Assembly: GCA_023133295.1 (NCBI GenBank)
Contig: JAGLWT010000116.1
Span: forward strand, 13,218 to 77,217
Length of the DNA stretch: 64,000 nt
Source: a bacterium
Lineage (GTDB): Bacteria; AUK180
Direction of reading: 5' to 3'
Part shown: piece after piece, positions 34,084 to 51,371 of the stretch
Layout of the letters: each line of letters begins with the position of its first letter
How positions within the stretch are numbered: position 1 is the stretch's first letter
The notes under the pieces: generated by a model
Seen by the model: the letters and a program-made list of their open reading frames with translations, nothing else
The model's database searches: none
Told to the model about the DNA's origin: nothing
Translations under genes and position numbers: made by a program

Positions 34084-34788
34084 TCATTTTTTCAGTCTTT
34101 CGCTGAAGAGGACAAAAAAGGCATAAATAGCATCTATCCAATGAATTTTGCTTTCCTCGACCTTTCTCGGAGTATAAGATATCGGGATCTCACAGAATCT
34201 ATAATTGAATTTAAAGATCTTTGCTGTGATCTCACACTCCATTTCAAATCCGTCATATTTCAGATTCAACGACTCCAGAATGCCTTTTCTGAACACCTTA
34301 TAGCCCGATGCTTCATCTGTAATATTTTTTCCATATAGTATCCGCACCGTCAGATTAATGAGTTTATTCGCCAGGAGCCGGGGAATTGATTTCATTTTTA
34401 CTTTTTTCAAAAATCTTGAACCGTATACAACATCGGCCTGCCCTGCTATGATCGGGAGTAACAAACCGGATATCTCTTCCGGATAATACTCCAGATCGGC
34501 ATCCTGAATAACAACAATATCACCGGAAGACACTTTCAAGCCTTTTTTTATTGAATAACCCTTTCCTCTGTTCACGCGGTTTTCACAAAGGATATCATAA
34601 AGATTGAAGTTCTCTTTCAATATTGCGTTCGAACTGTCTGTCGAACCGTCGTCCACTACGATGACTTCATGTTTAAATGAAAGCTTGGCGATCCGCTCAA
34701 GGACCTTCAGGATAGTTTCCGATTCATTGAAAGCCGGAATGATTATCGAGATCATCGCGTCAAATTCCGCGTTCTTCATATTTCTCAT
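34084..34788 (-). CDS. Family-2 glycosyltransferase, polyprenol-phosphate sugar synthase (Dpm1/ArnC/GtrB)-like
   Basis: ISIIIPAFNESETI, VIVVDDGSTDSS, VVIQDADLEYYPEE (DAD) and GSRF motifs at 234 aa are typical of Dpm1-like GT2 enzymes, which supply lipid-linked monosaccharide donors to GT-C enzymes. Confidence 0.7.
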   Translation of the reverse strand: MRNMKNAEFDAMISIIIPAFNESETILKVLERIAKLSFKHEVIVVDDGSTDSSNAILKENFNLYDILCENRVNRGKGYSIKKGLKVSSGDIVVIQDADLEYYPEEISGLLLPIIAGQADVVYGSRFLKKVKMKSIPRLLANKLINLTVRILYGKNITDEASGYKVFRKGILESLNLKYDGFEMECEITAKIFKFNYRFCEIPISYTPRKVEESKIHWIDAIYAFFVLFSERLKK

Positions 34789-37310
34789 TTTTCATCCCAT
34801 AAGATCCGGTACAATAAGGGGTAGTTGCTTCTATCTTCTATTGTGATATCGGGAAGGGATGATCCTTGGTCATTAAAATCGTAGTAGGTGAACAAATATC
34901 TAAAATAATCCTCCATTACAAGCGTCTTAGCACTCGCAAATTCATTGTATATCTTCAATGAATCAGCAGGACCCCAATCCTTATCAATATATTTTTTTGT
35001 GTACATCTCAATGGTAGTCCTTATAAGATCTTTTTCATCCTGATTCAGTCTTTTCTCCTCCTTTAGAAGAAAGGGAAAAAGTTCAGGAAAAAATAGACCG
35101 ACAGAACGAAGATCCCTGATAAACCCCTCGCCCAGGACAGAATATGTGTTTCCGTATAATTTATTATGACGCAGAGCAAAGCGGCAAGGTTCAATAATGC
35201 TACTTTTCATTATTTTTTCGTAAAGTTCCTTGAAAGCAGAACTTTCCGAAGGATTTATCAGGTATTTAAGATAGGGATATTCTGAAAATTCTCCTTCAAG
35301 TATCATACTCGCAAAAGAACTGGTGCAATCTGGATCGATCCTGTACGGGAGATTCCATATGGTGTAAAGCGGCCCTTTCAGGTAGGAGTAGGAAGAGAAA
35401 TATTCCGCTAAGACAACGATATTCTCTTTTTCGGCAATCTTCGTATCGAAATTAAATAAGTAATAGAGCGGATTGAAAATATTCTCTTCGGAATCCTTCA
35501 GAAAAGGAGGAAAAGGGCTGTAAAGGTCTTTCAGGAGAAGATATTTTCTGTCTTTTTCAATTCTAACGAGAGCCGATATTTTATCAAATCTCTTTTTGCC
35601 AAATCCAAATGGTGAATTTCTTAAGGATATTATTTCCTCGATCTCCTTCCTTCTGTCTGATAATTCCCCATAAGTCCTTGCGGCTTCATAATTTCCAAGC
35701 AGTATATTTATTACCGCTATATTTTCTGTGGTATATATCGGTTTGCGAAGCAGTCCTTTTCCCTCGCCGTATTCACCTGTTCGGAATTTAGCGATTGCCA
35801 ATGAAAAAAAGTTTTCCGCGGAGGGGTCGTATTTGACCAGCTCCTCAAGTTCGTCTGAGATCTGCTGCCATCTATTTTCAAAGCGGTAGTATTTCAAAAG
35901 CATTTTCCTTGTGTGTTTCAGTTCCGGTACCAGATATTTAGAAAAAAGGAGTAATTCTTCCGCCTCGCTTTTCTTTCCGCGCTGAAGCAGAATTTCTGCT
36001 TTCAGATTTAAAAGTTCTGGATAAAGATCCTCATCCAATGCAGAATCAATATATTTAATCGCCTGTTCATAATCACCTTTTTTATAGGATTCCACTGATT
36101 TTGCATTGAATTCAAGATAGCGCTTATAAAAGATCTGATGATTTCCAAGTTCGCCTGTGAACTGGATTATATTAATAGAGATCGGGATCAGCAGGAGTGC
36201 CCATTTTATGCTTCCGGGCAGGGCTATGCTCCGGATTTTATATTTGAACGGATAAAATAGGAGTATGAAGATCAAGACAGCGATCGGCTGATGCAAAGGA
36301 AAATCAAATATAAGGGATATTAAAAATGCCAGAAGGGGGGCGCTTCGGGATGTTGCCTGACCAAGAAGATATTCTGATAAGGAAATAAATACGATCAGAA
36401 ATAAGAAAATGCCGATGAATCCTCCCTCAACACCCATGTGTATGATCTCGCTATGGGCGCGCCTGACCAGAAATTTGGAGGTGGAGTAAAGCCCTTTTTC
36501 TTTACTTACTGCAGCAAGGTTCTTCTTATATGCCGATGGAAACCTGCCTAGGCCGGTGCCGAAAGGATTTTCAATTACTGTTTTCAAGCCGGTCCTGATT
36601 ACGGTTCTTCTGGTATTTAAAGGGTGAGCAACGGTTATTACAAGGAAAAATCCCAGAATGATGGCAGTATAGAATATTATTCTCCTCAGAATACTTTTTT
36701 TGATTAATGAGATCAAAATAGACAGCAGGGTTATTGCTATCATTATTTTAGAAAATGTCATCAAAAGAGCTATCCCTGAAACAAATAGAAAAAAGTAATT
36801 TCTCTTTTTGAAAAAGAACATTTCTGCAAGAAATCCCATCGTCAGTACTACCGCCAGTTCATTAGGATTCCCCATAGTCGAGAACACACGCTTACCCGAC
36901 CAGTCAAATTCCCAGAATGAAAAATCTATCTTGAAAAATTGCAGGACTGCGTACAGCGAAACAAGGAATATCGAAACACGCAGCCAACGATAAAGAATAT
37001 CGGTATTGAAACTGGATTCCGAGATCAAAAGAAAAAGCAATACCTGAACAAGGCAGAAAAATCCACACCAGGATGGATTGACAGCAAAGAAGACCAGAGC
37101 GGCGAAAAAGATCAGAATCGATCTGAATGTAACCCTCTTAATAGTAAAAACCACGGGCAAAAAAGATATTAACAGTAATTTGGGAAGAAGAAAAGAACTT
37201 TTAAGTATTGGAAGAAATATCAGTACCGATAGAAATATCAATGCCCCGGCAAAATGTACGGTATATGTTTTCTTTCCCATTGATTTTTTTTCTACATCTT
37301 GTTTCTGCAT
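34785..37310 (-). CDS. Wzy_C (O-antigen ligase / PglL-type oligosaccharyltransferase)-like polytopic membrane protein with C-terminal TPR repeats
   Basis: About 10-12 TM helices with a HSEIIHMGVEGGFIG loop, resembling the Wzy_C His/Arg catalytic loop. The C-terminal about 450 aa contain TPR-like repeats (YEQAIKYIDSALDEDLYPELLNLKAEILLQRGKKSEAEELL...). Confidence 0.5.
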   Translation of the reverse strand: MQKQDVEKKSMGKKTYTVHFAGALIFLSVLIFLPILKSSFLLPKLLLISFLPVVFTIKRVTFRSILIFFAALVFFAVNPSWCGFFCLVQVLLFLLISESSFNTDILYRWLRVSIFLVSLYAVLQFFKIDFSFWEFDWSGKRVFSTMGNPNELAVVLTMGFLAEMFFFKKRNYFFLFVSGIALLMTFSKIMIAITLLSILISLIKKSILRRIIFYTAIILGFFLVITVAHPLNTRRTVIRTGLKTVIENPFGTGLGRFPSAYKKNLAAVSKEKGLYSTSKFLVRRAHSEIIHMGVEGGFIGIFLFLIVFISLSEYLLGQATSRSAPLLAFLISLIFDFPLHQPIAVLIFILLFYPFKYKIRSIALPGSIKWALLLIPISINIIQFTGELGNHQIFYKRYLEFNAKSVESYKKGDYEQAIKYIDSALDEDLYPELLNLKAEILLQRGKKSEAEELLLFSKYLVPELKHTRKMLLKYYRFENRWQQISDELEELVKYDPSAENFFSLAIAKFRTGEYGEGKGLLRKPIYTTENIAVINILLGNYEAARTYGELSDRRKEIEEIISLRNSPFGFGKKRFDKISALVRIEKDRKYLLLKDLYSPFPPFLKDSEENIFNPLYYLFNFDTKIAEKENIVVLAEYFSSYSYLKGPLYTIWNLPYRIDPDCTSSFASMILEGEFSEYPYLKYLINPSESSAFKELYEKIMKSSIIEPCRFALRHNKLYGNTYSVLGEGFIRDLRSVGLFFPELFPFLLKEEKRLNQDEKDLIRTTIEMYTKKYIDKDWGPADSLKIYNEFASAKTLVMEDYFRYLFTYYDFNDQGSSLPDITIEDRSNYPLLYRILWDEK

Positions 37311-37352: not shown

Positions 37353-40253
37353 TCAGAATTCATGCTGAAGATCCGCGATCTCCATATCGCCCGAGGAATT
37401 GCCGGAAGTAAATCTCAGTAATTTGCCGTCACGGATCTTATATCTTACATAACCCACAGAGAGATCGTAGAAGTTAGTACCGGCCTTATCCTTCAGATAA
37501 CTAAAATCCTTCTGGAATTGAGCAAGTTCCTTGCCCTTGTTGAAATAATCAATATGGAAAAGCATGTCCATGGGCAATGCGAGATTCAGCATATCCTTGA
37601 GTTTGTAATTATACAGAAAGCGTGTGGGCATAAGCACCACATCGACCTTATCGAAATACTGCTTGTATGACATCAATTTATCCACTTCCCCCCTGTCCAG
37701 ATCAGCGGCTAATAAAAACTGTTTTCTTGAGATCTCAATACCCTTTTTCTTCAAGATATAATCGGCCTTAAGTACCATATTATCCTGAAAATAATCCTCT
37801 TTGCCGCTGCTTTCCGGGTATATAGCGTATATCTCAAACACATATTCACTGCTTCCCACTTTCTTACTCTCTTTCAGAATATAATCACCTGCCTTTACCA
37901 CTTCATAGGGTATTTTACTGGACAATAGGGTGTTGCTTACCTTTTGACATGTTTCATATCTGCTTTTTACCCAATAAGCCTGGCCTCTTTCAAGTAAATA
38001 CTCATTATCAGTAGATTTCAAGAAGTCTTCATATGTAGATGCGGATGCTTTTTGCACATTTGTGGGAAGATATACCTTTCCCACGGGATATTCTCTTAGT
38101 ATTGTAGTAACCGCCGAATTATTATCCTGAGAGTAATCCGTCAGGATCAGATCGTCTATGCGGTTGATACCGTAAGACATCAAAATGCTCATGACCACAC
38201 GGTCGGCCTCGTCCCATTCCCTTCTGTTATAGAGAGAATGTTTCCCCGCATTTATCAATACATTTCTCCCCGAAGGCGTTTTGATGAAAACGACATTGCC
38301 TTTGGAAAGGGAGAAGAAGGTTATGTCAACTTCATTATCCCTCTTTGTTGGTATCAGCAGAAGTATGGAGCCCAGAAGTACAATGGCGATTATGATCGCG
38401 GGCAGAAACTTAAATATACGCGCCCTCTTGTCGTGTTTCTGTTTGAATACCGTCAATTTATATTTATAGTCAAGCCATTTACTTTTGATATACGGCAGAT
38501 TGATAATGATAAGCAGCGCTATAAAATAGAATATCAGCCCGCCGAAGGTGAACTTCTTCACATATGGATATGGAAAAGTGGTCGAAAAGAAATGCGCGGA
38601 CTGTATGAAGAGCTTCAACAGCAGATAATTAGCGGCATTGATGAACAGTCCCATATAGATACCGACAACGGGTATCAGAGACAGAATTGCCGCGATCATC
38701 CCCAATTGAACATTGATACCGATGAGGGGTATGGCGATATAATTGGCGTACATACCCGCAATTGGATATCTGCCGAAATAATATGCGGAAAGCGGGATCA
38801 TCATTCCCAGCTGTATCGCGAATTGTGCCGATATAAAGGAGATCAGCCAAGGTGGCATCTTCCTGTAGGATGGAGCGGCAAGTTGCTTTTTTTCCTCAAA
38901 TTTATTGGATAAATACAAAAACACCCCGGAAGCGGCAAAAAATCCCCACAGAAATAGTGAATTAAAGAAATAACTCTTGAAGATGATGATCAGCGCGGTG
39001 AAGGAGGCGAAAACAAAGCAAGCCGCCCAAAAGGTATATCCGATCAGATACTTCTTGAAAATATCATCCAGAAACGGCGTGATAAGGACAAGAGACAGCA
39101 CCGCTCCAAACGATAGAGTAAAGGATGCCTCTCTCAATAGAAGCGGGTTCACAAATAATATCATAAGAGCGGCAACGGAAATACCCACCTCGATCGAGGT
39201 TCGCAGACCCTTGCCGGAAAGTACCCAGGCCATCAGCACGGCACTGTTCATTATTACAGCACGGAGAGTGGATGGCCGTCCGCCGGTGATTATCGCGAAG
39301 ATCACTAAAAAGAGTATTGTAATAACGGCATAAACTCTCCTCGGTACGCCTATCAATGAAAAGATCCCCACAAATAATATCATAAGGATCGTAACATGAA
39401 GCCCCGACACTGCCAGTACATGATTCACGCCCGCCCTTTTGAACTCATCCTTTATCTGATATCGGGCATCGGGCAAGAAGATCCCGTCCATGCCGTATCT
39501 CAGCCCCAGAGTAATACCGCCTAAAAATGCCGACTCCGGGTATTTCACCGTTCTTCGAATGGTCTTCAAGAACTTCTGCTTAATACCCAACGAGAAGGCT
39601 ACAAAGGGATTCTTCTTTGTCAGCTCATCAGGGGTGATGCGTGACGCATCCTTGAAATATGCTGTATAATATACTCCGGTGCTTTCCAGAAATTTTCTAT
39701 AATCAAAGCCGCCCGGATTCGTTGCTTTCTGCGGCCTCTTCAAGTCTGTCTCAAAGGTGATATAGTGGCCGTATGAGAGAAACTCCGGGTATTTGCCTTT
39801 CTTGAACGAATAATTAAGAAGGATCTTCCCCTTTTTTACTTCTTTCGAACGGGCGCCGTTGACCGAGATCTTCAGGGGCTTGATATAAACCCGCATCCTG
39901 TTCTCAAAATATTCGGGCTCTCTGTACACATATCCTTCGACCGTTGCGGATACGAGATCTTCTCCACCGGTAACGGTCAGTATATGCCCTTTTCTGTCAA
40001 TATTCAGAGCATTGTGCGTAAAGGCAAGGCCCAGTACAAATGGCAGAAGGTAAAAAGCCATCAGCATAGGTATCTTCTTGATATAACCCCAGCGCTTATA
40101 GCTATAAAAACCCACAGCTACAGCCGCGAGAAGAATCGCGGCAGAGAGGGCAAAAAAGATAAGCGGAGAGGCCAAAGGAAAGACGCCGAAACTGATGAGG
40201 ATGCCGAGGACAAAGAACAATGTAAAGAGATAGAGTTTATTTTCCCAATACAT
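37353..40253 (-). CDS. comEC: ComEC/Rec2-family DNA internalisation channel with N-terminal DUF4131-like region and a degenerate C-terminal metallo-beta-lactamase domain
   Basis: Competence domain signature AGVNHVLAVSGLHVTILMILFVGIF...RPSTLRAVIMNS. The C-terminal MBL-like fold has DDLILTDYSQDNNSAV where canonical ComEC has LVLTHxDxDHxGG, so the HxHxDH metal ligands are missing. Confidence 0.75.
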   Translation of the reverse strand: MYWENKLYLFTLFFVLGILISFGVFPLASPLIFFALSAAILLAAVAVGFYSYKRWGYIKKIPMLMAFYLLPFVLGLAFTHNALNIDRKGHILTVTGGEDLVSATVEGYVYREPEYFENRMRVYIKPLKISVNGARSKEVKKGKILLNYSFKKGKYPEFLSYGHYITFETDLKRPQKATNPGGFDYRKFLESTGVYYTAYFKDASRITPDELTKKNPFVAFSLGIKQKFLKTIRRTVKYPESAFLGGITLGLRYGMDGIFLPDARYQIKDEFKRAGVNHVLAVSGLHVTILMILFVGIFSLIGVPRRVYAVITILFLVIFAIITGGRPSTLRAVIMNSAVLMAWVLSGKGLRTSIEVGISVAALMILFVNPLLLREASFTLSFGAVLSLVLITPFLDDIFKKYLIGYTFWAACFVFASFTALIIIFKSYFFNSLFLWGFFAASGVFLYLSNKFEEKKQLAAPSYRKMPPWLISFISAQFAIQLGMMIPLSAYYFGRYPIAGMYANYIAIPLIGINVQLGMIAAILSLIPVVGIYMGLFINAANYLLLKLFIQSAHFFSTTFPYPYVKKFTFGGLIFYFIALLIIINLPYIKSKWLDYKYKLTVFKQKHDKRARIFKFLPAIIIAIVLLGSILLLIPTKRDNEVDITFFSLSKGNVVFIKTPSGRNVLINAGKHSLYNRREWDEADRVVMSILMSYGINRIDDLILTDYSQDNNSAVTTILREYPVGKVYLPTNVQKASASTYEDFLKSTDNEYLLERGQAYWVKSRYETCQKVSNTLLSSKIPYEVVKAGDYILKESKKVGSSEYVFEIYAIYPESSGKEDYFQDNMVLKADYILKKKGIEISRKQFLLAADLDRGEVDKLMSYKQYFDKVDVVLMPTRFLYNYKLKDMLNLALPMDMLFHIDYFNKGKELAQFQKDFSYLKDKAGTNFYDLSVGYVRYKIRDGKLLRFTSGNSSGDMEIADLQHEF

Positions 40254-40402
40254 TATTTTTCTTCCAAAAACCCGTAATACGATTCATTGGACCTGAGATT
40301 TCCCTCGATCGTATAATTCTTATCAAAGGCCAGAACCAGGATCGCGGCAATCGCAATGATAATTATCCCTATTAAAATAAAGGCCTTCTTTCCTTTTTTC
40401 AT
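40253..40402 (-). CDS. Small single-pass membrane protein (49 aa), not in the supplied ORF track
   Basis: The reverse complement reads MKKGKKAFILIGIIIIAIAAILVLAFDKNYTIEGNLRSNESYYGFLEEK. Its ATG overlaps the stop of the 663-aa gene as TAATG. Its TAA overlaps the ComEC ATG as TAATG. It fills the only gap in the operon exactly. Confidence 0.5.
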   Translation of the reverse strand: MKKGKKAFILIGIIIIAIAAILVLAFDKNYTIEGNLRSNESYYGFLEEK

Positions 40403-42393
40403 TAACTTCTCCAGTCAAGATAGAATTTGAAAGCCCTCTGCGGAACCGTATTATCAGCCCTTGCCGAATTATCCTGAATATAATACCTTCTTTTGTACCC
40501 TATTTTCAGCTTCAGATTCTTCCACCAGAGTTTTCTGCTGTAATCAACCGACCATTCACGGTATTCCTCAGAGGTGGATGAGTCCGACTTCCTGTAGATA
40601 TTATTATCCGTGGATTTAAACGAGAACAGGAAGTTACCCAGGGCGGGTTTCCAATTCGCCTTCAGCTGATAGGATGCATTGGCCTTTCTCTGAGGCAGAG
40701 AATGTTCCATATAGGTATTGAAGCGGTAAATGCCTGTCAGGCGCAATTTCTCGGACAAGTTGTAATTAAAAGTCACATAAGTCCTTGTGCTTTTGTCCGA
40801 TTCGGAATAATCCGTAATATATGAATCATTCAAGTTCCTTGCTACATCATTATCTTTATACCGCTGCGTCACCGCCATATCAACAAGCGGCGTTATCGGA
40901 TATTGAAATTTTATCGAGCCGTCGAAATTGGTCTGAAGAGTTGAATAATACCTCCAGATATCCGCCTTGGGAGTGATCTCCAATTTTCCCAATTTTAAAA
41001 GCGCATCGAATTTAATACCCCTTTCGTTCTGGGCGGAAAGCTCCGCAGGAGATTCATATGTGGCGAATGTATATGAATAGGGATTTTCAAATTCCCTGTG
41101 GAAATCCCTGTAAATAAAATTGATCCGCGCGGTTTTCTTTTTCATGGTCATCTTCAATAAGAAGCCGTGAGCGCCTGATTCCAATTGCCCGAATTCCGCC
41201 TGAATAGCCGACTTTTTAAAAGGAGTCCACCGCATATTCAATCCCCATACCCATGCATCGAACATGCCTTCAGAGTAATTATTCGGCTTGTAGAGGTCAG
41301 AGGCATAGATCTCCTTATTGTGGTAAACGGTCATTCCGATAAAATTGTCCTCTCCGCCGATGCGCATATGCCCGCCGAAAATGGTCTTGTTAACATAATT
41401 CGGAATGGAAAGAGCGATCGTATCTTCGTCAAAATCGCTCTCTGAATACGCCGATTCATCCGCGCTGAAATCGGCCGAACTGACCAGAAGATGTGAATAC
41501 TGATAGAGCTTGTCCTGTATCTGTGACGCGAAGATGAATATCTCCGCCGGTCCCAGCACCGTTCGCATACCGGCACCAAGGAGGTTCAGATTGAAATCGG
41601 AAGTAACATCACTGGAACGGTCGCCCTTGAAGCCGTACAGATTCTTGTTATCGGATTCATTAAAGACCACGCCAAGACCGAAGCCCGCCATATAATTTCC
41701 CGTGATCAATTGGAAGTTCTTTGTATTCCAGTTTATAAATACCTTAGGCAGAGGCCATACCGTTTTCTTCGGGTCAACGATAACTTCGCCCGGCTGAAGG
41801 AAGATCTCGCCGTTTTCATCATAGGTAACAGGCCCGTCATATTCCTCAAAGCTGTATGTGGCGTATCTGCGTTCCTGAAGAATTCCTATATCCAATACCT
41901 TTCCGAGACGGAAGCGGTATTTGAACTGTACATAAGGCGTCTCTTCTGATTTGGTCGTGGAAGAAACCTCGTCCCTGAATTTAAAGTTGAGGTCGGTTTT
42001 CCTTTTCAATACCTTCTTACCCTTGACCTTCTTTATCTTTACCGGGGGAATGATGCGCATAAATCCCTCAACAAAACTGAAGTCTGTACGCCCGAGGATC
42101 CTTTTGAGGGGCTTGTCATCTTTAAATGGCCGGTTCTTGATGATCTCATCAGCGATCTCAAGGGTTACCTTGGGAAGCCGCAGCAGCTCACTCTTAGGAG
42201 CGCTATTGACCTCTATAGGATTTGAGTAAAGTTCCCAAAGCATAATATACTGCTCTTGATCGATATCTCCGGACTCGTACAGATCGGCGATCTCGTCTTC
42301 CGTAGATATGGGTATCGAAAGATCATAATCCTGAGCAAATGCAAAAGAGGCCAAAAACAAAACGATCAGAAATAGTATTCTACCTTTCATCAT
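40402..42393 (-). CDS. Secreted or outer-membrane protein with an N-terminal ComEA-like helix-hairpin-helix motif followed by a large beta-rich (putative beta-barrel) domain
   Basis: Signal peptide MMKGRILFLIVLFLASFAFA. Then IEVNSAPKSELLRLPKVTLEIADEIIKNRPF, a ComEA-type HhH (NxNxA..eLxxLPGIg.xxAxxIixxR). Then about 550 aa of alternating beta-strand-like sequence rich in Tyr/Phe/Asn. Its start overlaps the stop of the upstream gene as ATGA. Confidence 0.5.
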   Translation of the reverse strand: MMKGRILFLIVLFLASFAFAQDYDLSIPISTEDEIADLYESGDIDQEQYIMLWELYSNPIEVNSAPKSELLRLPKVTLEIADEIIKNRPFKDDKPLKRILGRTDFSFVEGFMRIIPPVKIKKVKGKKVLKRKTDLNFKFRDEVSSTTKSEETPYVQFKYRFRLGKVLDIGILQERRYATYSFEEYDGPVTYDENGEIFLQPGEVIVDPKKTVWPLPKVFINWNTKNFQLITGNYMAGFGLGVVFNESDNKNLYGFKGDRSSDVTSDFNLNLLGAGMRTVLGPAEIFIFASQIQDKLYQYSHLLVSSADFSADESAYSESDFDEDTIALSIPNYVNKTIFGGHMRIGGEDNFIGMTVYHNKEIYASDLYKPNNYSEGMFDAWVWGLNMRWTPFKKSAIQAEFGQLESGAHGFLLKMTMKKKTARINFIYRDFHREFENPYSYTFATYESPAELSAQNERGIKFDALLKLGKLEITPKADIWRYYSTLQTNFDGSIKFQYPITPLVDMAVTQRYKDNDVARNLNDSYITDYSESDKSTRTYVTFNYNLSEKLRLTGIYRFNTYMEHSLPQRKANASYQLKANWKPALGNFLFSFKSTDNNIYRKSDSSTSEEYREWSVDYSRKLWWKNLKLKIGYKRRYYIQDNSARADNTVPQRAFKFYLDWRS

Positions 42394-43877: not shown

Positions 43878-46800
43878 CTACATCCTTTTCCCAATGGCAA
43901 CGACTTCTTTCTTATAAATAGATTTCGTTTCATTTCTCAATTCGATATATAGAATATACACACCCATTGGCAGCGGCCGGTTGCGATTATCATCGCCGAT
44001 CCATTTCACAGAGAAAGGCCCCGGCGGAAGAACTGTCTTTTCCGATAATGTCTTTACTTCTCTTCCGGCAATGTCATATACACGCAGCGTGAGCACTCCC
44101 TCGGAAACAACATGCAGGGAGATCTCGGTATATAATCTATTCGGATCGCTGCCGTCATTAACAAAGCTCCTCGGGGAGATCTCGATCTGCGTAATATTGC
44201 CGGCGGGTATCTCCGTTTCATCGCAAGGCCTTCCCATCGTGGGGTTTTCCGTGATCGTCCAATCGGCAAGCGTGTTCGTATCCGTAAATTCCGCATCACG
44301 CGTTATAGATGATTCTTCCTCCACATTATTTGATCTGATGGCATTGGTAGCGGCATAGATCCAATCGTAAATATATCCGCTGTCCGGCTGCTCGCCAAGA
44401 GGATAATCGGGATACTTCGCCATATTGGGGAAAAATTTATAGATCTCTCCGTCCCAATGATATGCTCCTAATTTGGGATCGGATGAAAAATATACCTCAT
44501 AGAAATCGCTGTATTCAATATAAGAGATATCTATCAATTCTGAAACGACCCATGTCGACGCGGCGGGAACCACCTGTCCGTCGGCTATAAGATCGCCGTT
44601 CTCGTCAAAGGGGAATATTTGTTCTTCTGAATTTCTTTCAGCCCATACAACGGCATCTTTGATATTTCCGGAAAAATCCCGGAACTCAAGGTTCTCATCC
44701 GTGCTGGAAAGCGAGAGTTTCGAAAGATAGATCGTTAATATTCCGTCACTTCCCGCGGTAAGTTCGCTGTCATTTTCATTTCCTACGGTGATAATGACAA
44801 ATTCACCGGTTTTCAAGGTCGTTCCGGGCTGAATTATCGCAATTACGCTGTCCGTCAGCATGAAACAACCACCGACATCAACACCTGCTCCGGAATTGCC
44901 GTCATCCTTGCAATAAAGCTCTATCCAATCCGGAAATCCTGAGGGTGAGTAAAAATAAACCTCTGAGATCACGATATCCGTTTCGGCGGGCAATGTATCG
45001 ATCGGATGGCCGTAACCCGGCGTAACGACCAGGGTATTCTTCCAGTCAACTTTATCATTGGTATCCGTATTGTAATAATCTCTGACAATAGAGCCCTTTG
45101 AAAAATCCGATGAAACACAGTCGATCTCTTCGCCGTCAACGGGAGAGCCGTAGCCTATGTTCCATTGGCCGACAGCAAAAGCTTCCTCAAAGTCATCATC
45201 GGACAGGGAGCCGCCCTGATCCGCCCAGCAGACAAGGTCTATCAATTCGCCATTCGGCGTAAATATGCCCATTTGCTCGTCCGAATCGGTTATCCCCGTA
45301 TCGGCGGTCGTCACAAAATACGATGCCTTGGTCAGGGGAAGTTTCCAGTCATCCGCATTATCATATATCAATAATCCGTAATCTCCTGTGCGGAAGATAC
45401 CGGATGAAAGTTTTTTATCGGCTTTTTCGTTCAGGTCCGTAATGGAGGCGCGGGTGCCGTAAGTGGATATCGAATCAAGATCATCAAGATAAAATCCTTT
45501 AAGGTCGATACCGTTTCCATTATTACCGTCATCGATCATGTAAAACTCCACAAAATCCTCGCCATATGTCCCGATAGAATCTACTTCGGTAATTAGGATC
45601 ACAGGGTCCTTTACCGTTATGGACTCTAAATAGTCCGAAACAGAATTTCCGGTGTCCGAGATCGCATTTGCTTTTTGATCCGCTCCCGTGACCCAGAAAC
45701 CTATGATCGAGAGATTGGGTATATCCACGGTAGAACCCTTGGTAAGGTCAGCTCCGCCTTTATAAACCAGGGTATTTCCCCATATAATGCCGTCTTCGCT
45801 GCCGTCAGCGCCGGAGCTGTAGGCGAGTGTTACCGTGCCGGAATCTACGAATACTCCAGTAGAGGTCTTGATCTCATACCATAAACTCAAGGTAGATGTA
45901 TCTTCAATACCGCCCTCTTCTGAAAGTATCAGCTCAAACGATGTGGCTGAAAGAGAAACACGGGGGAAATCTCCCGAAGGAGACATGGAAACAGGAGAGG
46001 GGCCCGTAATATCTATCGGCAAGACCGTAAGGTCCGCGGAAACAATACCATCCACTCCTGTATTTTCCGGTGTTATTTCAATAACTCCCGAAGACAGGCA
46101 TCCGCCGAAATCAACCGTACCCTCACCATTGATCAAGGTCAGCGCGATCGTGTCAGTGCCTCCCGAAAAATGTCCGGTTCCGGCAGGAGAAGCGGATATC
46201 GTAATATCTAGTGTCGGAGACGAGGTATAGACGGAGTAGTTCTCATCAAGAAGCTTAACCGTGACCGTCGTGGTCTCCGGCGTACCCCCGGTAACTTCGA
46301 TCCTTGTGGGGTATACAAAAGCACGGAGATTGATCGAGGACTCGGTAGGCCCGACCGAATTGGGGTGGCGCGGCGTGCCGTAGATAGGGTTGCCCAGATA
46401 ATCGGTGCCGTATATGGTAATAAGATCATTATCCGCCCAATTGGAAGAATCGTTGCCGTCCTTTCCGAGAATGATCTTTTCCATGGAAACGCCGCCCGAC
46501 TGGCCGGCGAACCATCCATCTGAGCAGTCGACTTGATCAATGAGATTAGCGGAGTTATCATACAGGCGGAGGTTTTCTCCGTCATTTGAAAGTTTGCTGT
46601 AGCCAAGGTCTTCAGAATCGCTTTCGATATCGGCGATCGCCTGTTTTACCGGCTCGGTACTGCTTCTGTATTCTATCAGATAATATGCTCCCGATCTGAT
46701 CGTGGTTGTGTTAGCAGTGGTAAGGTCAACAATTATTCCACCGCTATCCCAAATATACCATCCGGTAAGATCGATATCGGAACCCGTGGGATTGTAAAGC

Positions 46801-46940
46801 TCGATCCATTCGTACCCGCTCTGGGCAATGGTCCCGCTCCATGAAAGCTCTGAAATAACAACATCACCGCTTGAAGCGGAATGTATCGCAAGGGGCAGTA
46901 TCGAAAGGATGATCAACAATGCTAATATTTTTTTCATCAT
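43878..46940 (-). CDS. Large secreted multi-domain protein (1020 aa) with at least three lamin-tail-domain (LTD) repeats and a T9SS C-terminal sorting domain
   Basis: Signal peptide. LTD signatures: GDVVISELSWSG...GYEWIELYNPTGSDIDLTGWYIWD; PVILITEVDSIGTYGEDFVEFYMIDDGNNGNGIDLKGFYLDD; DIVISEVYFYSPSGFPDWIELYCKDDGNSGAGVDVGGCFML. C-terminus LTLRVYDIAGREVKTL...GVYILYIEL...KKEVVAIGKRM matches a Por_Secre_tail. Confidence 0.65.
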   Translation of the reverse strand: MMKKILALLIILSILPLAIHSASSGDVVISELSWSGTIAQSGYEWIELYNPTGSDIDLTGWYIWDSGGIIVDLTTANTTTIRSGAYYLIEYRSSTEPVKQAIADIESDSEDLGYSKLSNDGENLRLYDNSANLIDQVDCSDGWFAGQSGGVSMEKIILGKDGNDSSNWADNDLITIYGTDYLGNPIYGTPRHPNSVGPTESSINLRAFVYPTRIEVTGGTPETTTVTVKLLDENYSVYTSSPTLDITISASPAGTGHFSGGTDTIALTLINGEGTVDFGGCLSSGVIEITPENTGVDGIVSADLTVLPIDITGPSPVSMSPSGDFPRVSLSATSFELILSEEGGIEDTSTLSLWYEIKTSTGVFVDSGTVTLAYSSGADGSEDGIIWGNTLVYKGGADLTKGSTVDIPNLSIIGFWVTGADQKANAISDTGNSVSDYLESITVKDPVILITEVDSIGTYGEDFVEFYMIDDGNNGNGIDLKGFYLDDLDSISTYGTRASITDLNEKADKKLSSGIFRTGDYGLLIYDNADDWKLPLTKASYFVTTADTGITDSDEQMGIFTPNGELIDLVCWADQGGSLSDDDFEEAFAVGQWNIGYGSPVDGEEIDCVSSDFSKGSIVRDYYNTDTNDKVDWKNTLVVTPGYGHPIDTLPAETDIVISEVYFYSPSGFPDWIELYCKDDGNSGAGVDVGGCFMLTDSVIAIIQPGTTLKTGEFVIITVGNENDSELTAGSDGILTIYLSKLSLSSTDENLEFRDFSGNIKDAVVWAERNSEEQIFPFDENGDLIADGQVVPAASTWVVSELIDISYIEYSDFYEVYFSSDPKLGAYHWDGEIYKFFPNMAKYPDYPLGEQPDSGYIYDWIYAATNAIRSNNVEEESSITRDAEFTDTNTLADWTITENPTMGRPCDETEIPAGNITQIEISPRSFVNDGSDPNRLYTEISLHVVSEGVLTLRVYDIAGREVKTLSEKTVLPPGPFSVKWIGDDNRNRPLPMGVYILYIELRNETKSIYKKEVVAIGKRM

Positions 46941-46946
46941 ATACTC

Positions 46947-47831
46947 CTACCACCGATACCCAAGGCCGGCTGATACCGTTCCCGGTAAAAGCGATCCGAA
47001 CCCGTATGAGACATCGATCTCCAGCTTGTTCAATCCGATCTGAACACCGAAGAGAATATTTCTTGTGGTATCATTCAATGCATCACTCGCGCCGAATCTC
47101 AATTTTATCCATTTAGTAATATTAAAAGCTAAGCCCGAATTCAAGATCATTGAAGATTCCCTGATAACCGCCTGTGTCAAGAGGGTCAGCGCCATGCCTC
47201 CGTCACCCATTTGCCGTTTATATCGAAAGCCGATACCTCCGGATATAGAAGGGAACGCGCCTTCCTGTTCAAATTCCAGCTTCGTACCCCAATTATTTAC
47301 AAAAAGTCCTATCAGAAGCTTTTTCATCTTAAAGGCAAGGCCGAGGTCAATTAAAAAAGAGTCCGCTGTATATGTATCGATACGGCTGAAAAGGTATTTT
47401 ATATTTACACCGGCATATGTATTCTGGCCGATGGCATCGCCGAAAGAAAGCACAAGTCCAAGGTCGGAAGAATGGAATTGCCCGGTAACCGTGCCTATCT
47501 CATCCCGGGAATCCTGATATCCCCAATTGCCGTAAATGGCAGAGATCCCGACATTGCCGAAATTCTCAAGATACACCGCCGTTGATATTAAAGAGACATC
47601 CATCTCCTCATAATATTTTCTGTAGCTGGTTTTAAAATAATTCCAGCCCGAGATAGGCATCAATGCCGGATTGACCAGTATGGAACCAAAATCATCAATA
47701 TCAACGCCGAGAACGGACCCGCTGCCGCGTGCTCCCGAAGTCGGGTCAATATTAAAAACATTGGAAGAGCCCATTGCGGCAATGCAAACCGAGATCAAGA
47801 GAACCATTATGAATATTACAGATCTCTTCAT
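46947..47831 (-). CDS. Outer-membrane beta-barrel protein, FadL/PorV-like (NPA motif). Putative partner of the adjacent LTD cargo proteins
   Basis: Signal peptide MKRSVIFIMVLLISVCIAA. GSILVNPALMPISG NPA motif. Beta-strand alternation. C-terminal ...GLGYRW. Paralog of the proteins at 13832..14782 and the N-terminal domain at 42390..43868. Confidence 0.5.
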   Translation of the reverse strand: MKRSVIFIMVLLISVCIAAMGSSNVFNIDPTSGARGSGSVLGVDIDDFGSILVNPALMPISGWNYFKTSYRKYYEEMDVSLISTAVYLENFGNVGISAIYGNWGYQDSRDEIGTVTGQFHSSDLGLVLSFGDAIGQNTYAGVNIKYLFSRIDTYTADSFLIDLGLAFKMKKLLIGLFVNNWGTKLEFEQEGAFPSISGGIGFRYKRQMGDGGMALTLLTQAVIRESSMILNSGLAFNITKWIKLRFGASDALNDTTRNILFGVQIGLNKLEIDVSYGFGSLLPGTVSAGLGYRW

Positions 47832-47834
47832 GAT

Positions 47835-50800
47835 CTACCTCACCACCGAGAACTTAACCATCGCGGTGAAGCTATCCGCTTTTACCAGGCCGAAATATAT
47901 CCCCGCGGGGATCTTTCTCCCGTATCTGTCCTTCAAATCCCAACTTATCTGATGGAATCCCGCAGAAAGCACAGCATCGTGTATCTCAATCACCTTTCTC
48001 GCATCCAATGTCAAGATCGTCAGCGTAACATTGGATTCTTCCAGTATGTTTATCTCAAATGTTATCGTGTCGACATCCGGAGTTGCCGGATTCGGATATG
48101 GAGTATATATATTATTCCCGTCAAATGAGGTGTCAATGAAATACTCCAGCAGGTCAACACATGTGAATTCAACTATATGCTTTCCCGCCTCGGAGGCCAG
48201 GGTCAATGTGAATGACGCCGAGCCGTCGGTGCCGGTCCGGGCGGAGGATGGGGCGATAGACGCACCCAAAGGAGTGTCGATAAGAGAGGTGGCGACATCC
48301 GCACCATACAATCCCAATCCGGTATCAGAAGTGATATAGACCAAGATATCCCGATCCTTCCCGGGAGCGGTATGCGGATCTTCCGCGGGGTCAAATGTCA
48401 TTACCGCGGGAGAAAGGACATCAAATTCAGGCGAATTCAGTTCAACAAGGTCTGTACCGTTCTCTAAAATGCTTATCCCGAATTCGTATATTCCTTCCGC
48501 ATCAGGGAAATCATAACCATTGAAATCTATGCTCACCGAGCTTGCCGCGGTTATCCCGGGAATGGTAATGGTGGAGCCGGAAACCGTATAGGCGACCGTA
48601 TTGGAAGCATCGACGGTTACCGTCAGATTTGCCAATGTGGGTTGAGTAAAACTTGAATGAACAACAATATACAGATCATCGTCTCCATCCAGCTTGGGAT
48701 AACCTACCGTATAATCAATACCCAGATCTCCATTGCCGCCTTGGCAAAGCGGGACATTGGGAGTTTTTGAAATGCCATAAGAGCCGGAAACCGCAGAATC
48801 CACATTGCCGAAAGGCGAGGAATTGCCTGATTCATCAAGGGCCTTCACCGAAATATAATATGTTGTGCCGGCAGGCAGCATCGTCAGTGCATGCTCCTCT
48901 GTCTGAGTCGGCAGAAGCGGTGTTATCCCCGAAGTATCGTATTTATCCGCAGCGATAAAGTCAGCGTCATCAGAGATCGGGGCGGTGGAATAAGCGATCT
49001 CATAACTATCACATTGAGATACGCCAAGTCCGTTCTCGCCCACTGCGGTAAAGTTTATTCTGATACCGCCGATCGTAGGATGGGAATATGCGCTAAGGTC
49101 ATTGATCACCGATGGCGATCGATTATCGATGGTATTGAAAGAGAAGAGATAATCTCCACCGGGAGCGCCGTCATTATCTCCGTCAAGGCCGTTGCCTGAT
49201 ATATCCATCGCTCTAGAGTAAACGGTAATATCATATGAGGTGTCTTCTGTAAGCGGAGCCGTAAGGGTCATCGTTAATGTCTCATTGCCGGCATCCCAGG
49301 AAAGCGTATATGCTACAGCCGGCACTATCTCAAGCGATAAATCCACCGATACGGTATTCATTTCCTCTGAGAATGTGATGATAATATCGGTCACTGTATC
49401 TATATTCACTCCCGAATCGATCGGAGATGTGTATAGAACGGTCGGTGAGGCATAATCTCCACAGCTTGTACTGTAATTTGAGTTTTCAGCACAGGGTGTG
49501 GCATTAAGCGGATTATTGTCGGCATCAAGGCCGTTTATTGTAATTCCGTCATTGGAACCCCAGTTACCGGCGACCGAACCGCCGACACATGGATCTATTC
49601 TCTCCATTGTGAAATAATTAGGGGATCCCGTACCTGCGTACCAACCGGCACTACAATCGACCAGATCAACTGTCACATTGGATGAATTCTTTAAAGTTAT
49701 CGTCACACCGGTGTTGCTCAAACTGAGAGATGTATCCACAAGTCCGCCCGCAACATCATTCACGGTATCCTCGGAATTTTCAATAAGGTAATATCCGAAA
49801 GCGGGAATAGTTCCCGAAAGCGTTTCCGTCGAGAACCCGACTCCCTGAACATACCAGCCGGTAAGGTCGATCCCCTCACCTGTCGGATTGTACAGCTCTA
49901 TCCACTCATCGGAAGATGAGTGCAATGTACCGCCGAAGGCGACTTCATTTACAACAACCTTTCCGGTCATTGACTCATATACTTCGATCAAGGGAGATGC
50001 TCCGATCGCCGAAAGCGTCCCTGTGCCTTTTGATCTTACGGTATAGGTATATGTTCCGAGCGTGTCGCACATAGCACCGGGCGAACCCGAAGACATATCT
50101 CCATAAATGAATACTAATGTATTTCCGGTATCGAGCGTAGTAATATCCGCTATTATCTCCCAACCAGTGGTCTCATTTCCCGTAATGGAAGCGATCGATG
50201 CCGCGGCATCGCCGGAAAGGGAAAGATATCCTTCCGATGCAGGAGCTCCGTCCTGCGGCTGTGACCAATTCGCGGGAATATATAGCGCGACCTGCCCGCC
50301 TGCCATATCAAGCGATGCGGTATAGATCACATTTACGCTCTGATGATTATCCTTGAGAATATTAGAGGGATATGCGACCGCCGTACCGGTACCGTCACCG
50401 TATTGCGATGTCTGAAAACTGAATGTATATGTATCTCCGCCCGAATCATCCACTGAAGCGGAGTCAGCCAGCGTATTGCCCGCTACATCCGCAACTATGG
50501 TCTTATCGATCTCAATATAATATGTCGCCCCGAATGACAGTGTATTATGTGTGATCGTAAGTGTTTGTGTAGTATTTGACCATGCATATCCTTCTCCTCC
50601 GGGTGAGGGTGATATAATTATCCCCAAAGTGGAGGTATCCGCCATTTCCTCGTCAAAATCTATTGTGATATCGGCCAAGGGGTTGACCGCCGACGCGCCG
50701 TTAACCGGGGCCGTCGCGGTTATGGTCGGAGCTTGCGTATCCGCAGCTGCACCGCCGCAGGTCGAAACCATACAGGAATTGTCCTGACCTGGAGTACCGT

Positions 50801-51371
50801 GAATGGCATTTGAACCAGAATCCGCTCCATTTATGGTAACTCCATCATTTGTAGCCCAATTGGAACACACATTTCCGGGCGAGCACGGGTCTATCCTTTC
50901 CATCGTATATTCTCCGGTAGTATTTCCTGCACACCATGCCCCGCTATTGTCATCAGCAACATCGATCACATTGCCGGTAGCGTCCTGGCCATCGTATAAG
51001 ATAATACTGTCTCCGCCGGCGTTCATTCCTATCGTAAGGTCCCAGATCTCAATTGTAGCTCCCGAAGTGAATACTCCGGCATCATTTGCGTATATCAGAT
51101 AGCCATTGGCGGGAATGATAGTGGTATTGTTTCCGTCGGCTGCTGAAATATTCAGGACAACCCCGGTATCAGCGCCATAGATCGACCAAGCGGCTATATC
51201 GATCGGTGCATCTGTGGTATTATAGAACTCTATCCATTCATCACTTGCCGAATCCGTGGTTCCGTCATAGGCGATCTCATTGATGACAACATCACCGGGA
51301 GTCGCCGCTTCCGCGATCTGCATAGATATCAAAAGCAAGGCGGCAATAAATATGATCGTTATTTTCTTCAT
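47835..51371 (-). CDS. Large secreted protein (1178 aa) with two lamin-tail-domain (LTD) modules, Ig-like/beta-rich repeats and a T9SS C-terminal sorting domain
   Basis: Signal peptide MKKITIIFIAALLLISMQIAEA. LTD signatures: GDVVINEIAYDGTTDSASDEWIEFYNTTDAPIDIAAWSIYG and GKVVVNEVAFGGTLHSSSDEWIELYNPTGEGIDLTGWYVQG. C-terminus VTLTILTLDARKVIEIH...ISWDL...GIYFGLVKAD...KFSVVR matches a Por_Secre_tail. Confidence 0.65.
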   Translation of the reverse strand: MKKITIIFIAALLLISMQIAEAATPGDVVINEIAYDGTTDSASDEWIEFYNTTDAPIDIAAWSIYGADTGVVLNISAADGNNTTIIPANGYLIYANDAGVFTSGATIEIWDLTIGMNAGGDSIILYDGQDATGNVIDVADDNSGAWCAGNTTGEYTMERIDPCSPGNVCSNWATNDGVTINGADSGSNAIHGTPGQDNSCMVSTCGGAAADTQAPTITATAPVNGASAVNPLADITIDFDEEMADTSTLGIIISPSPGGEGYAWSNTTQTLTITHNTLSFGATYYIEIDKTIVADVAGNTLADSASVDDSGGDTYTFSFQTSQYGDGTGTAVAYPSNILKDNHQSVNVIYTASLDMAGGQVALYIPANWSQPQDGAPASEGYLSLSGDAAASIASITGNETTGWEIIADITTLDTGNTLVFIYGDMSSGSPGAMCDTLGTYTYTVRSKGTGTLSAIGASPLIEVYESMTGKVVVNEVAFGGTLHSSSDEWIELYNPTGEGIDLTGWYVQGVGFSTETLSGTIPAFGYYLIENSEDTVNDVAGGLVDTSLSLSNTGVTITLKNSSNVTVDLVDCSAGWYAGTGSPNYFTMERIDPCVGGSVAGNWGSNDGITINGLDADNNPLNATPCAENSNYSTSCGDYASPTVLYTSPIDSGVNIDTVTDIIITFSEEMNTVSVDLSLEIVPAVAYTLSWDAGNETLTMTLTAPLTEDTSYDITVYSRAMDISGNGLDGDNDGAPGGDYLFSFNTIDNRSPSVINDLSAYSHPTIGGIRINFTAVGENGLGVSQCDSYEIAYSTAPISDDADFIAADKYDTSGITPLLPTQTEEHALTMLPAGTTYYISVKALDESGNSSPFGNVDSAVSGSYGISKTPNVPLCQGGNGDLGIDYTVGYPKLDGDDDLYIVVHSSFTQPTLANLTVTVDASNTVAYTVSGSTITIPGITAASSVSIDFNGYDFPDAEGIYEFGISILENGTDLVELNSPEFDVLSPAVMTFDPAEDPHTAPGKDRDILVYITSDTGLGLYGADVATSLIDTPLGASIAPSSARTGTDGSASFTLTLASEAGKHIVEFTCVDLLEYFIDTSFDGNNIYTPYPNPATPDVDTITFEINILEESNVTLTILTLDARKVIEIHDAVLSAGFHQISWDLKDRYGRKIPAGIYFGLVKADSFTAMVKFSVVR

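Follow-up and report, generated by a model that had tools for sequence, protein, structure and literature searches.

The 64,000-nucleotide stretch of contig JAGLWT010000116.1 analyzed here (the window; assembly GCA_023133295.1, GTDB lineage AUK180) carries on its minus strand a comEC-like gene, whose product we consider, with fair probability, to be a ComEC channel with a pseudo-nuclease C-terminal domain (CTD), that is, a domain that has kept the metallo-beta-lactamase (MBL) fold and can no longer form the canonical two-metal (Mn2+) centre. The components of this reading differ in strength. That the CTD is a ComEC-type MBL domain by fold and homology is practically certain, and the loss of the canonical two-metal site is highly probable. 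Since a true ComEC-type MBL fold is present without the canonical binuclear metal site, a canonical Mn-dependent nuclease in this domain is, judging from its sequence, very unlikely. Beyond this, we infer a lack of CTD activity, a scaffold or guide role for the domain, a nuclease acting in trans in this organism, and DNA as the substrate. The gene and its domains were located as follows.

37353..40253, minus strand: comEC-like gene, 966 amino acids (aa) plus stop, intact open reading frame (ORF)
39639..40163, minus strand: OB-fold domain DUF4131 (PF13567), aa 31-205, Pfam E=1.8e-23
38355..39581, minus strand: transmembrane channel (Competence, PF03772), approximately aa 225-633, Pfam E=1.8e-38
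37356..38354, minus strand: C-terminal MBL-fold domain (the CTD), aa 634-966, with degenerate metal ligands

The gene product is identical to P0001, a protein of public metagenome-assembled genomes (MAGs) annotated as 'ComEC/Rec2 family competence protein [bacterium]'. Its Competence domain scored 132.9 bits against a Pfam cut-off of 23, with the strongest stretch at aa 266-440, and numerous columns of the channel region were nearly invariant in the subfamily alignment described below. In phmmer searches against the PDB, the 966-aa protein matched the ComEC chain 30bt_A, solved by cryo-electron microscopy (cryo-EM), at E=4.6e-47, and its OB-fold region matched the ComEC OB-fold chain 9iew_A at E=1.2e-5. 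The Pfam comparison with the Lactamase_B families that the earlier note on this DNA had proposed yielded no match to Lactamase_B or Lactamase_B_2 in the 966-aa protein, even at E<=1. The sole MBL trace in the family scans was a faint NCBIfam B3-MBL match at aa 661-755 (E=0.03). Because the CTD is divergent, the protein also stayed under the 190-bit equivalog cut-off of NCBIfam TIGR00361 (ComEC/Rec2) with 159.6 bits.

The MBL nature of the CTD was recovered by structure and profile comparison. The AF2 model (predicted local distance difference test, pLDDT, 90.9) contained the alpha-beta/beta-alpha MBL sandwich, with a Foldseek match for fold and homology at E=1.3e-17, and a CTD profile built from the subfamily aligned to the isolated MBL domain 9ic4_A at E=1e-55 over the entire domain. 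With the CTD alone as the query, phmmer aligned its first 110 residues to 30bt_A (E=1.5e-11) and 9ic4_A (E=8e-10). The isoelectric point of the CTD body (8.7) is compatible with nucleic-acid binding and is not discriminating.

The same alignments gave the position of motif II. Each residue of the segment LILTDYSQDNNSAV (aa 702-715, window positions 38109-38150, minus strand) had its counterpart in VISTHPDADHIGGL of 30bt_A, a full-length ComEC, and 9ic4_A was in equal register with VVSTHPDADHIGGL opposite LILTDYSQDNNSAV; as a result T-D-Y-S-Q-D-N-N-S-A falls opposite T-H-P-D-A-D-H-I-G-G. Motifs I to V, also assessed by column counts, read as follows in the query.

38295..38306, minus strand: motif I, S650-K-G-N653 for canonical G-Q-G-D
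38112..38141, minus strand: motif II, T705-D-Y-S-Q-D-N-N-S-A714 for T-H-x-[HD]-x-D-H-x-G-G
37779..37787, minus strand: motif III, Q823-D824-N825 at the canonical Asn position (MAFFT and hmmalign one residue apart)
37701..37703, minus strand: motif IV, bridging Asp kept (D851)
37617..37628, minus strand: motif V, P876-T-R-F879 for P-H-H-G

Relative to canonical motif II, numbered H598-x-D600-x-D602-H603 (PMC12455585), the query carries H to D706, D to S708 and H to N711 together with a change of GG to SA, and retains only the Asp at D710. Approximately two of seven positions are thus identical to the canonical ligand set (the motif II Asp D710 and the motif IV Asp D851), and even the latter is replaced by Ala in P0003 and P0004, two orthologues with 59% identity. 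The earlier note had described three histidines replaced by Asp, Ser and Asn: the three substitutions are as it stated, and its count of histidines fits the HxHxDH variant, many ComECs having HxDxDH. Conserved His/Asp ligands elsewhere in the CTD were looked for as well; neither displaced ligands nor an alternative His/Asp cluster was found in the domain, over the whole of which the 9ic4 profile alignment stayed in register.

As ComEC often has HxDxDH, the strict regular expression H.H.D[HQ] gave way to H.[HD].[DE]H for counting motif II among homologues. Within the last 420 aa this pattern was present in none of the 120 nearest homologues versus 125 of 146 more distant CTD homologues, the latter comprising canonical ComECs of about 800 aa and standalone MBLs of about 300 aa. 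Together with the PDB alignments to 30bt_A and 9ic4_A these counts bear out the observation that had drawn attention to the gene, namely a ComEC CTD without the HxHxDH motif, and given the homologue counts the motif loss is, at the level of sequence, not a chance pattern.

The query is part of a large ComEC subfamily that is widespread in the environment. Its closest relatives are ComECs of 930-1250 aa, and the MAGs encoding them bear the labels Kiritimatiellia, Verrucomicrobia, Marinimicrobia, Dependentiae or simply 'bacterium'. Their motif II consensus is T-S-P-x-P-E-R (n=120), with Ser at the first His position in 102/120 and His there in 0/120, and with Arg at the last His position in 89/120. 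The motif IV Asp is kept in 88/120 and the His-His of motif V in many members; the small clade of the query (P0001-P0007) is more degenerate at motif V than the wider subfamily. Nearly invariant CTD columns across the subfamily hold Gly, Pro, Leu, Phe, Tyr and one Asp, and the canonical residue is gone from all six ligand positions of motifs I, II and V. Orthologues at 36-62% identity share the architecture of the query, and its CTD subtype is rare, with two clusters at E<=1e-10 among 1.84 billion representatives (phmmer).

Selection on the CTD was assessed from the ratio of non-synonymous to synonymous substitution rates (dN/dS) between the query and two independent 98%-identical orthologues (loci L005 and L006). 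The CTD gave 0.045-0.059 compared with 0.039-0.046 for the remainder of the protein; it is constrained as strongly as the channel and is under strong purifying selection. In canonical ComEC the OB fold packs on the MBL domain in cryo-EM structures, and both position the DNA at the channel entrance (PMC13539106, PMC12455585). The strong selection on the CTD is likely explained by the dead CTD and the OB fold still building such a vestibule, which would receive and guide DNA at the channel mouth.

Three further elements distinguish this ComEC type and are candidates for docking a partner.

37905..38057, minus strand: helical insertion, about 50 aa long (aa 733-783), separating the MBL sandwich halves, helices H101-146 of the model
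37356..37400, minus strand: acidic C-terminal tail, aa 952-966, ending ..DMEIADLQHEF-COOH, predicted disordered (pLDDT <50)
40253..40402, minus strand: 49-aa single-pass membrane protein with the motif NY..E.NL.SN..YY, sequence MKKGKKAFILIGIIIIAIAAILVLAFDKNYTIEGNLRSNESYYGFLEEK

The insertion follows the motif II strand in the subfamily, where it measures 40-50 aa, and corresponds to a gap in most canonical ComECs; profile positions 117-134 of the subfamily are unpaired in 9ic4. The tail, an acidic stretch followed by Gly/Glu and a terminal F, L or W, was present in 98/120 subfamily members and in none of 56 canonical ComECs. Its consensus, ..eDAVsDlxvG[FL]-COOH, has alternating hydrophobic residues and resembles a beta-strand docking signal. 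TAATG at both junctions joins the 49-aa ORF to its neighbours: its start codon shares bases with the stop codon of the gene upstream, and its stop codon shares bases with the start codon of comEC. A homologue was located directly upstream of ComEC at 22 of 31 degenerate-type loci versus 0 of 39 canonical loci. Within the subfamily these small proteins are 48-90 aa in length, single-pass, carry an SNxxYY(P) motif and often overlap the comEC start; the 49-aa protein matched zero Pfam or NCBIfam families.

The earlier note had also raised the possibility that strand degradation is outsourced to another protein. At six annotated relatives' loci the gene order is shared: small ORF, ComEC, ComEA-like protein and a protein of about 340 aa. 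When scored with a hidden Markov model (HMM) built from canonical ComEC CTDs, these 340-aa proteins reached 145-300 bits, compared with 79-97 bits for the fused CTDs of the query's group, which they clearly outscored, and 106-142 bits for other degenerate CTDs, where they lay at or above every one tested. All catalytic residues plus an N-terminal membrane helix were present in four of the six, an intact example showing V-Y-Q-G-D, T-H-P-H-A-D-H-L-G-G, N-N-N-S, T-G-D, P-H-H-G and G-H-P-H. The standalone MBLs were about 40% identical to canonical ComEC CTDs and only 25-33% identical to the degenerate ones.

A first search with this HMM for standalone MBLs covered the window and 13 related loci. 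For the comparison between ComEC types, 80 metagenome loci were combined with the earlier loci to give, without redundancy, 34 loci of the degenerate type and 41 canonical ones, and co-occurrence was counted where at least 2.5 kb of downstream sequence was available (31 degenerate and 30 canonical loci). A standalone ComEC-type MBL was encoded on the same strand as comEC and no more than 6 kb downstream at 15/31 degenerate loci, 11 of these with an intact motif II, versus 0/30 canonical loci (Fisher p=6.5e-6 for any MBL and 3.3e-4 for an intact MBL). This is good comparative evidence, drawn from gene neighbourhoods, that degeneration of the fused domain accompanies a nuclease supplied in trans across the subfamily. 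Two loci of the P0117/P0065 subgroup (L011 and L013) encode a UvrD-type helicase, an intact standalone MBL and an LTD (lamin-tail domain) protein of more than 3000 aa downstream of ComEC; a PDDEXK nuclease is also located downstream of ComEC in L013 and not in L011.

Several observations weigh against a pseudo-nuclease complemented in trans. The loci entering the Fisher test are phylogenetically related, which makes its p-values optimistic, even if several distinct subgroups contribute. The canonical-CTD HMM found a standalone CTD-like ORF neither in the window nor in L002 (57% orthologue) and L003 (38%), and no nuclease family was present among the approximately 35 window proteins scanned with Pfam and NCBIfam; the flanks of comEC in L002 and L003 likewise held no other recognisable nuclease. 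In L004 (13926-14951) and L014 (13825-14865) motif II is degenerate in the standalone MBL too, reading T-V-P-L-S-H-H-L-G; in this P0009/P0082 subgroup fused and standalone copies both look non-canonical. Outsourced degradation thus has support at the level of the subfamily and not from the window or its two relatives, and for this organism we give a nuclease in trans slightly less than an even chance. Similarly, of the suggestion that the nuclease is inactive, the MBL fold without a canonical binuclear metal site stands, and inactivity as such is the probable reading of the sequence.

The remaining points on this side concern the site itself. D706, S708, D710 and N711 are all polar oxygen donors, the small clade of the query (P0001-P0007) retains [DN]-x-[SN]-x-[DE]-N throughout, and both the general-base Asp D710 and the motif IV D851 are present. 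These residues could belong to a CTD that is still a hydrolase, in which a remodelled, oxygen-rich site (D706, S708, D710, N711, Q823/N825, D851) binds Mg2+, Mn2+ or Ca2+ and ComEC itself would still degrade the non-imported strand. The purifying selection on the domain would suit such a hydrolase, and Silale et al. warn that conservative ligand changes in the S. pneumoniae protein may spare metal binding (PMC8579336). We nevertheless regard this explanation as improbable. Both motif V His (now Thr-Arg) and the motif I Asp are gone, the bridging Asp is Ala in P0003 and P0004, which counts against a conserved metal site, and in the wider subfamily Ser and Arg predominate at the canonical motif II His positions (II-1 and II-6). 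The standalone MBL at half of the related loci (11/31 intact) suggests that the fused copy is insufficient. In canonical ComEC, moreover, Ala substitutions of the motif II aspartates abolished nuclease activity and impaired transformation (PMC8579336), and single Ala substitutions at several active-site residues abolished transformation (PMC12455585).

Upstream of comEC, same-strand genes with overlapping or near-abutting stops and starts form an operon with comEC. In addition to the 49-aa ORF, it contains the following genes (5' to 3').

47835..51371, minus strand: LTD and Big_5 protein, 1178 aa, Por_Secre_tail-like C-terminus, conserved in L002
46947..47831, minus strand: PorV/PorQ-family-like outer-membrane protein, 294 aa, NF033711 E=2.3e-23 and NF033709 E=1.2e-21, both under their cut-offs
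43878..46940, minus strand: LTD protein, 1020 aa, weak C-terminal signal of the type IX secretion system type, conserved in L002
42390..43868, minus strand: ComEA-like protein, 492 aa, two helix-hairpin-helix (HhH) repeat regions, HHH_3 E=1.4e-45 and TIGR00426 E=1.9e-36
40402..42393, minus strand: 663-aa protein with signal peptide, HhH (HHH_3) and a probable large outer-membrane beta-barrel

The gene order was kept in L002, and the last four genes (ComEA-like to ComEC) were also present in L003. Extracellular nucleases often carry a fused LTD domain; the two LTD proteins here (window 43878-51371, minus strand) gave no match to a nuclease domain. The HHH_3 match of the 663-aa protein (E=9e-5) was under the Pfam gathering score. 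Its AF2 model had a pLDDT of only 51 and more than 20 long strands, and its Foldseek matches were all outer-membrane barrels with low TM-scores. Only five homologues were recovered from 5.8 billion proteins, all of them beside this ComEC type. The barrel assignment draws on the strand pattern of this low-confidence model and on the weak Foldseek matches, and the protein could be an outer-membrane DNA conduit.

HhH domains recur in other forms among the relatives. P0013 (1247 aa) has a degenerate CTD followed by fused HhH (HHH_3/HHH) domains and is effectively a ComEC-ComEA fusion. In the P0009/P0082 subgroup, a giant secretin of 1650-1716 aa (AMIN, Secretin_N, Secretin) with a fused HHH_3 domain is encoded just upstream of the degenerate-CTD ComEC (L004 2948-7903, L014 1-3722). 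Taken together, the HhH/ComEA operon context and the secretin-HhH and ComEC-HhH fusions point to DNA as the probable substrate.

Directly downstream of comEC (34785-37310, minus strand), an 841-aa protein with a weak O-antigen-ligase-like (Wzy_C) match and TPR repeats is encoded, followed by a GT2 glycosyltransferase and two carbamoyltransferases. These genes were not conserved in L002 or L003 and are probably unrelated to the comEC operon. They would fit a ComEC homologue with no remaining part in DNA uptake, one that handles another polymer or has a structural role, its CTD binding a non-DNA ligand. The sub-cut-off TIGR00361 score (159.6 versus 190 bits) and the near-universal occurrence of ComEC homologues, including many bacteria not known to be transformable (PMC6299819), are in line with such a role. 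It appears quite unlikely in view of the translational coupling to the ComEA-type double-HhH and HhH proteins in an operon kept down to 38% identity, the conserved OB-fold and channel motifs, and the ComEA-like genes, ComEC-type MBLs, secretin-HhH fusions, PDDEXK nuclease and UvrD adjoining comEC in the relatives. The notion that the CTD is in decay, lies in a pseudogene or results from misassembly, to which the absence of Pfam Lactamase_B matches might lend itself, was rejected at a dN/dS of about 0.05 and has a negligible probability given the intact ORF, the identical or 98% identical sequence in independent assemblies, the AF2 pLDDT of 90.9 and the equal architecture of orthologues at 36-62% identity.

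If the CTD is a pseudo-nuclease, as we favour, strand removal in the subfamily, should it occur, would be done in trans, and the enzyme in many relatives would be the membrane-anchored ComEC-type MBL encoded downstream. Alternatively, a pseudo-nuclease ComEC might leave the strand displaced and not degraded. In the lineage of the query, the operon couples ComEC to the double-HhH ComEA-like protein, the HhH-bearing probable barrel and the surface LTD proteins. A broader and more doubtful proposal is that these proteins represent a second widespread ComEC architecture with the nuclease split off, in which the fused MBL would be a scaffolding pseudoenzyme that has a docking tail and a small membrane protein as its dedicated partner, and the separate membrane-anchored MBL paralogue would do the cutting; the capture and uptake of DNA here would then need no type IV pilus secretin and perhaps no strand degradation.

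The rest of the window is ordinary chromosome encoding ValRS, ArgRS, MurJ, PGK, GAPDH, TIM and tRNA-Leu. It derives from a deep-branching uncultured lineage, and its ValRS is only about 50% identical to that of any named lineage. Between approximately 20000 and 30000 it contains a low-GC island (27-31% compared with about 42-47% elsewhere) that encodes a PMT_2-like glycosyltransferase, a methyltransferase and large membrane proteins lacking annotation; this surface-polysaccharide cluster, as it probably is, may well have arrived by horizontal transfer. At 5955-8012 (plus strand) lies the gene of a coiled-coil protein of 685 aa, rich in Glu and Lys and with zero family matches, which accounts for the strong purine skew at 6-8 kb (AT skew 0.36, GC skew 0.21).

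That a dead domain is so strongly conserved speaks for a role at the channel mouth other than catalysis. As a neighbouring paralogue often appears to supply the lost activity, the findings suggest a testable two-protein model of a pseudo-nuclease scaffold and a trans nuclease, which also takes in the small membrane protein as a new partner and the docking motif at the C-terminus. How the strand is removed where ComEC lacks an active nuclease has been called 'an open and interesting question' (PMC8579336), and the subfamily pattern makes strand degradation without a competent ComEC directly testable.

Compared with canonical ComEC/Rec2 (B. subtilis, Moorella/Neomoorella; 9ic4, 30bt), the protein described here lacks H-x-[HD]-x-D-H at motif II as well as the Asp of motif I and the His of motif V, its CTD is about 70 aa longer owing to the helical insertion and the tail, a small membrane-protein partner is encoded upstream, and the TIGR00361 cut-off is not reached. 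By Pfam it resembles the Helicobacter pylori-type ComECs with a 'DC' profile, which have DUF4131 and Competence and no Lactamase_B. The DC-profile class of Pimentel & Zhang 2018 would include it, whereas here the CTD is present, folded and invisible to Pfam. Pfam-based surveys found almost half of ComECs to be without a CTD (PMC6299819). Such surveys probably miscount degenerate-CTD ComECs as lacking the domain, and part of the reported half may be proteins of this kind. The literature searched held no description of a subfamily with the T-S-P-x-P-E-R or T-D-x-S-x-D-N motif, the insertion, the tail and the small partner, of a recurrent pairing of ComEC with a standalone ComEC-type MBL, or of the HhH-barrel/LTD operon.

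INTS9 and CPSF100 are MBL pseudoenzymes without a full metal site that serve as scaffolds beside their active paralogues INTS11 and CPSF73. The arrangement of a dead MBL beside an active one is analogous to that of the dead CTD and the standalone MBL. The difference is that INTS9 and CPSF100 belong to eukaryotic RNA processing with homology at the superfamily level only, and the bacterial pairing is suggested by synteny.

The closest parallel is the ComEC (CelB) of S. pneumoniae, which has a full-length, ligand-poor MBL domain and relies on EndA, a separate membrane nuclease, for degrading the strand (PMC5031224, PMC8579336, PMC12455585). Only two of seven metal ligands are kept in that protein (Baker et al. 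2016), so that a full-length MBL-like CTD with about 2/7 identical ligands is common to both. The protein described here comes from an independent, uncultured diderm lineage and differs in its substitutions, insertion and tail; likewise, the nuclease is of the EndA type in S. pneumoniae and a paralogous ComEC-type MBL in the relatives of this gene. A ligand-poor ComEC CTD was therefore already known from S. pneumoniae, and the more interesting result is the pattern at the level of the subfamily.

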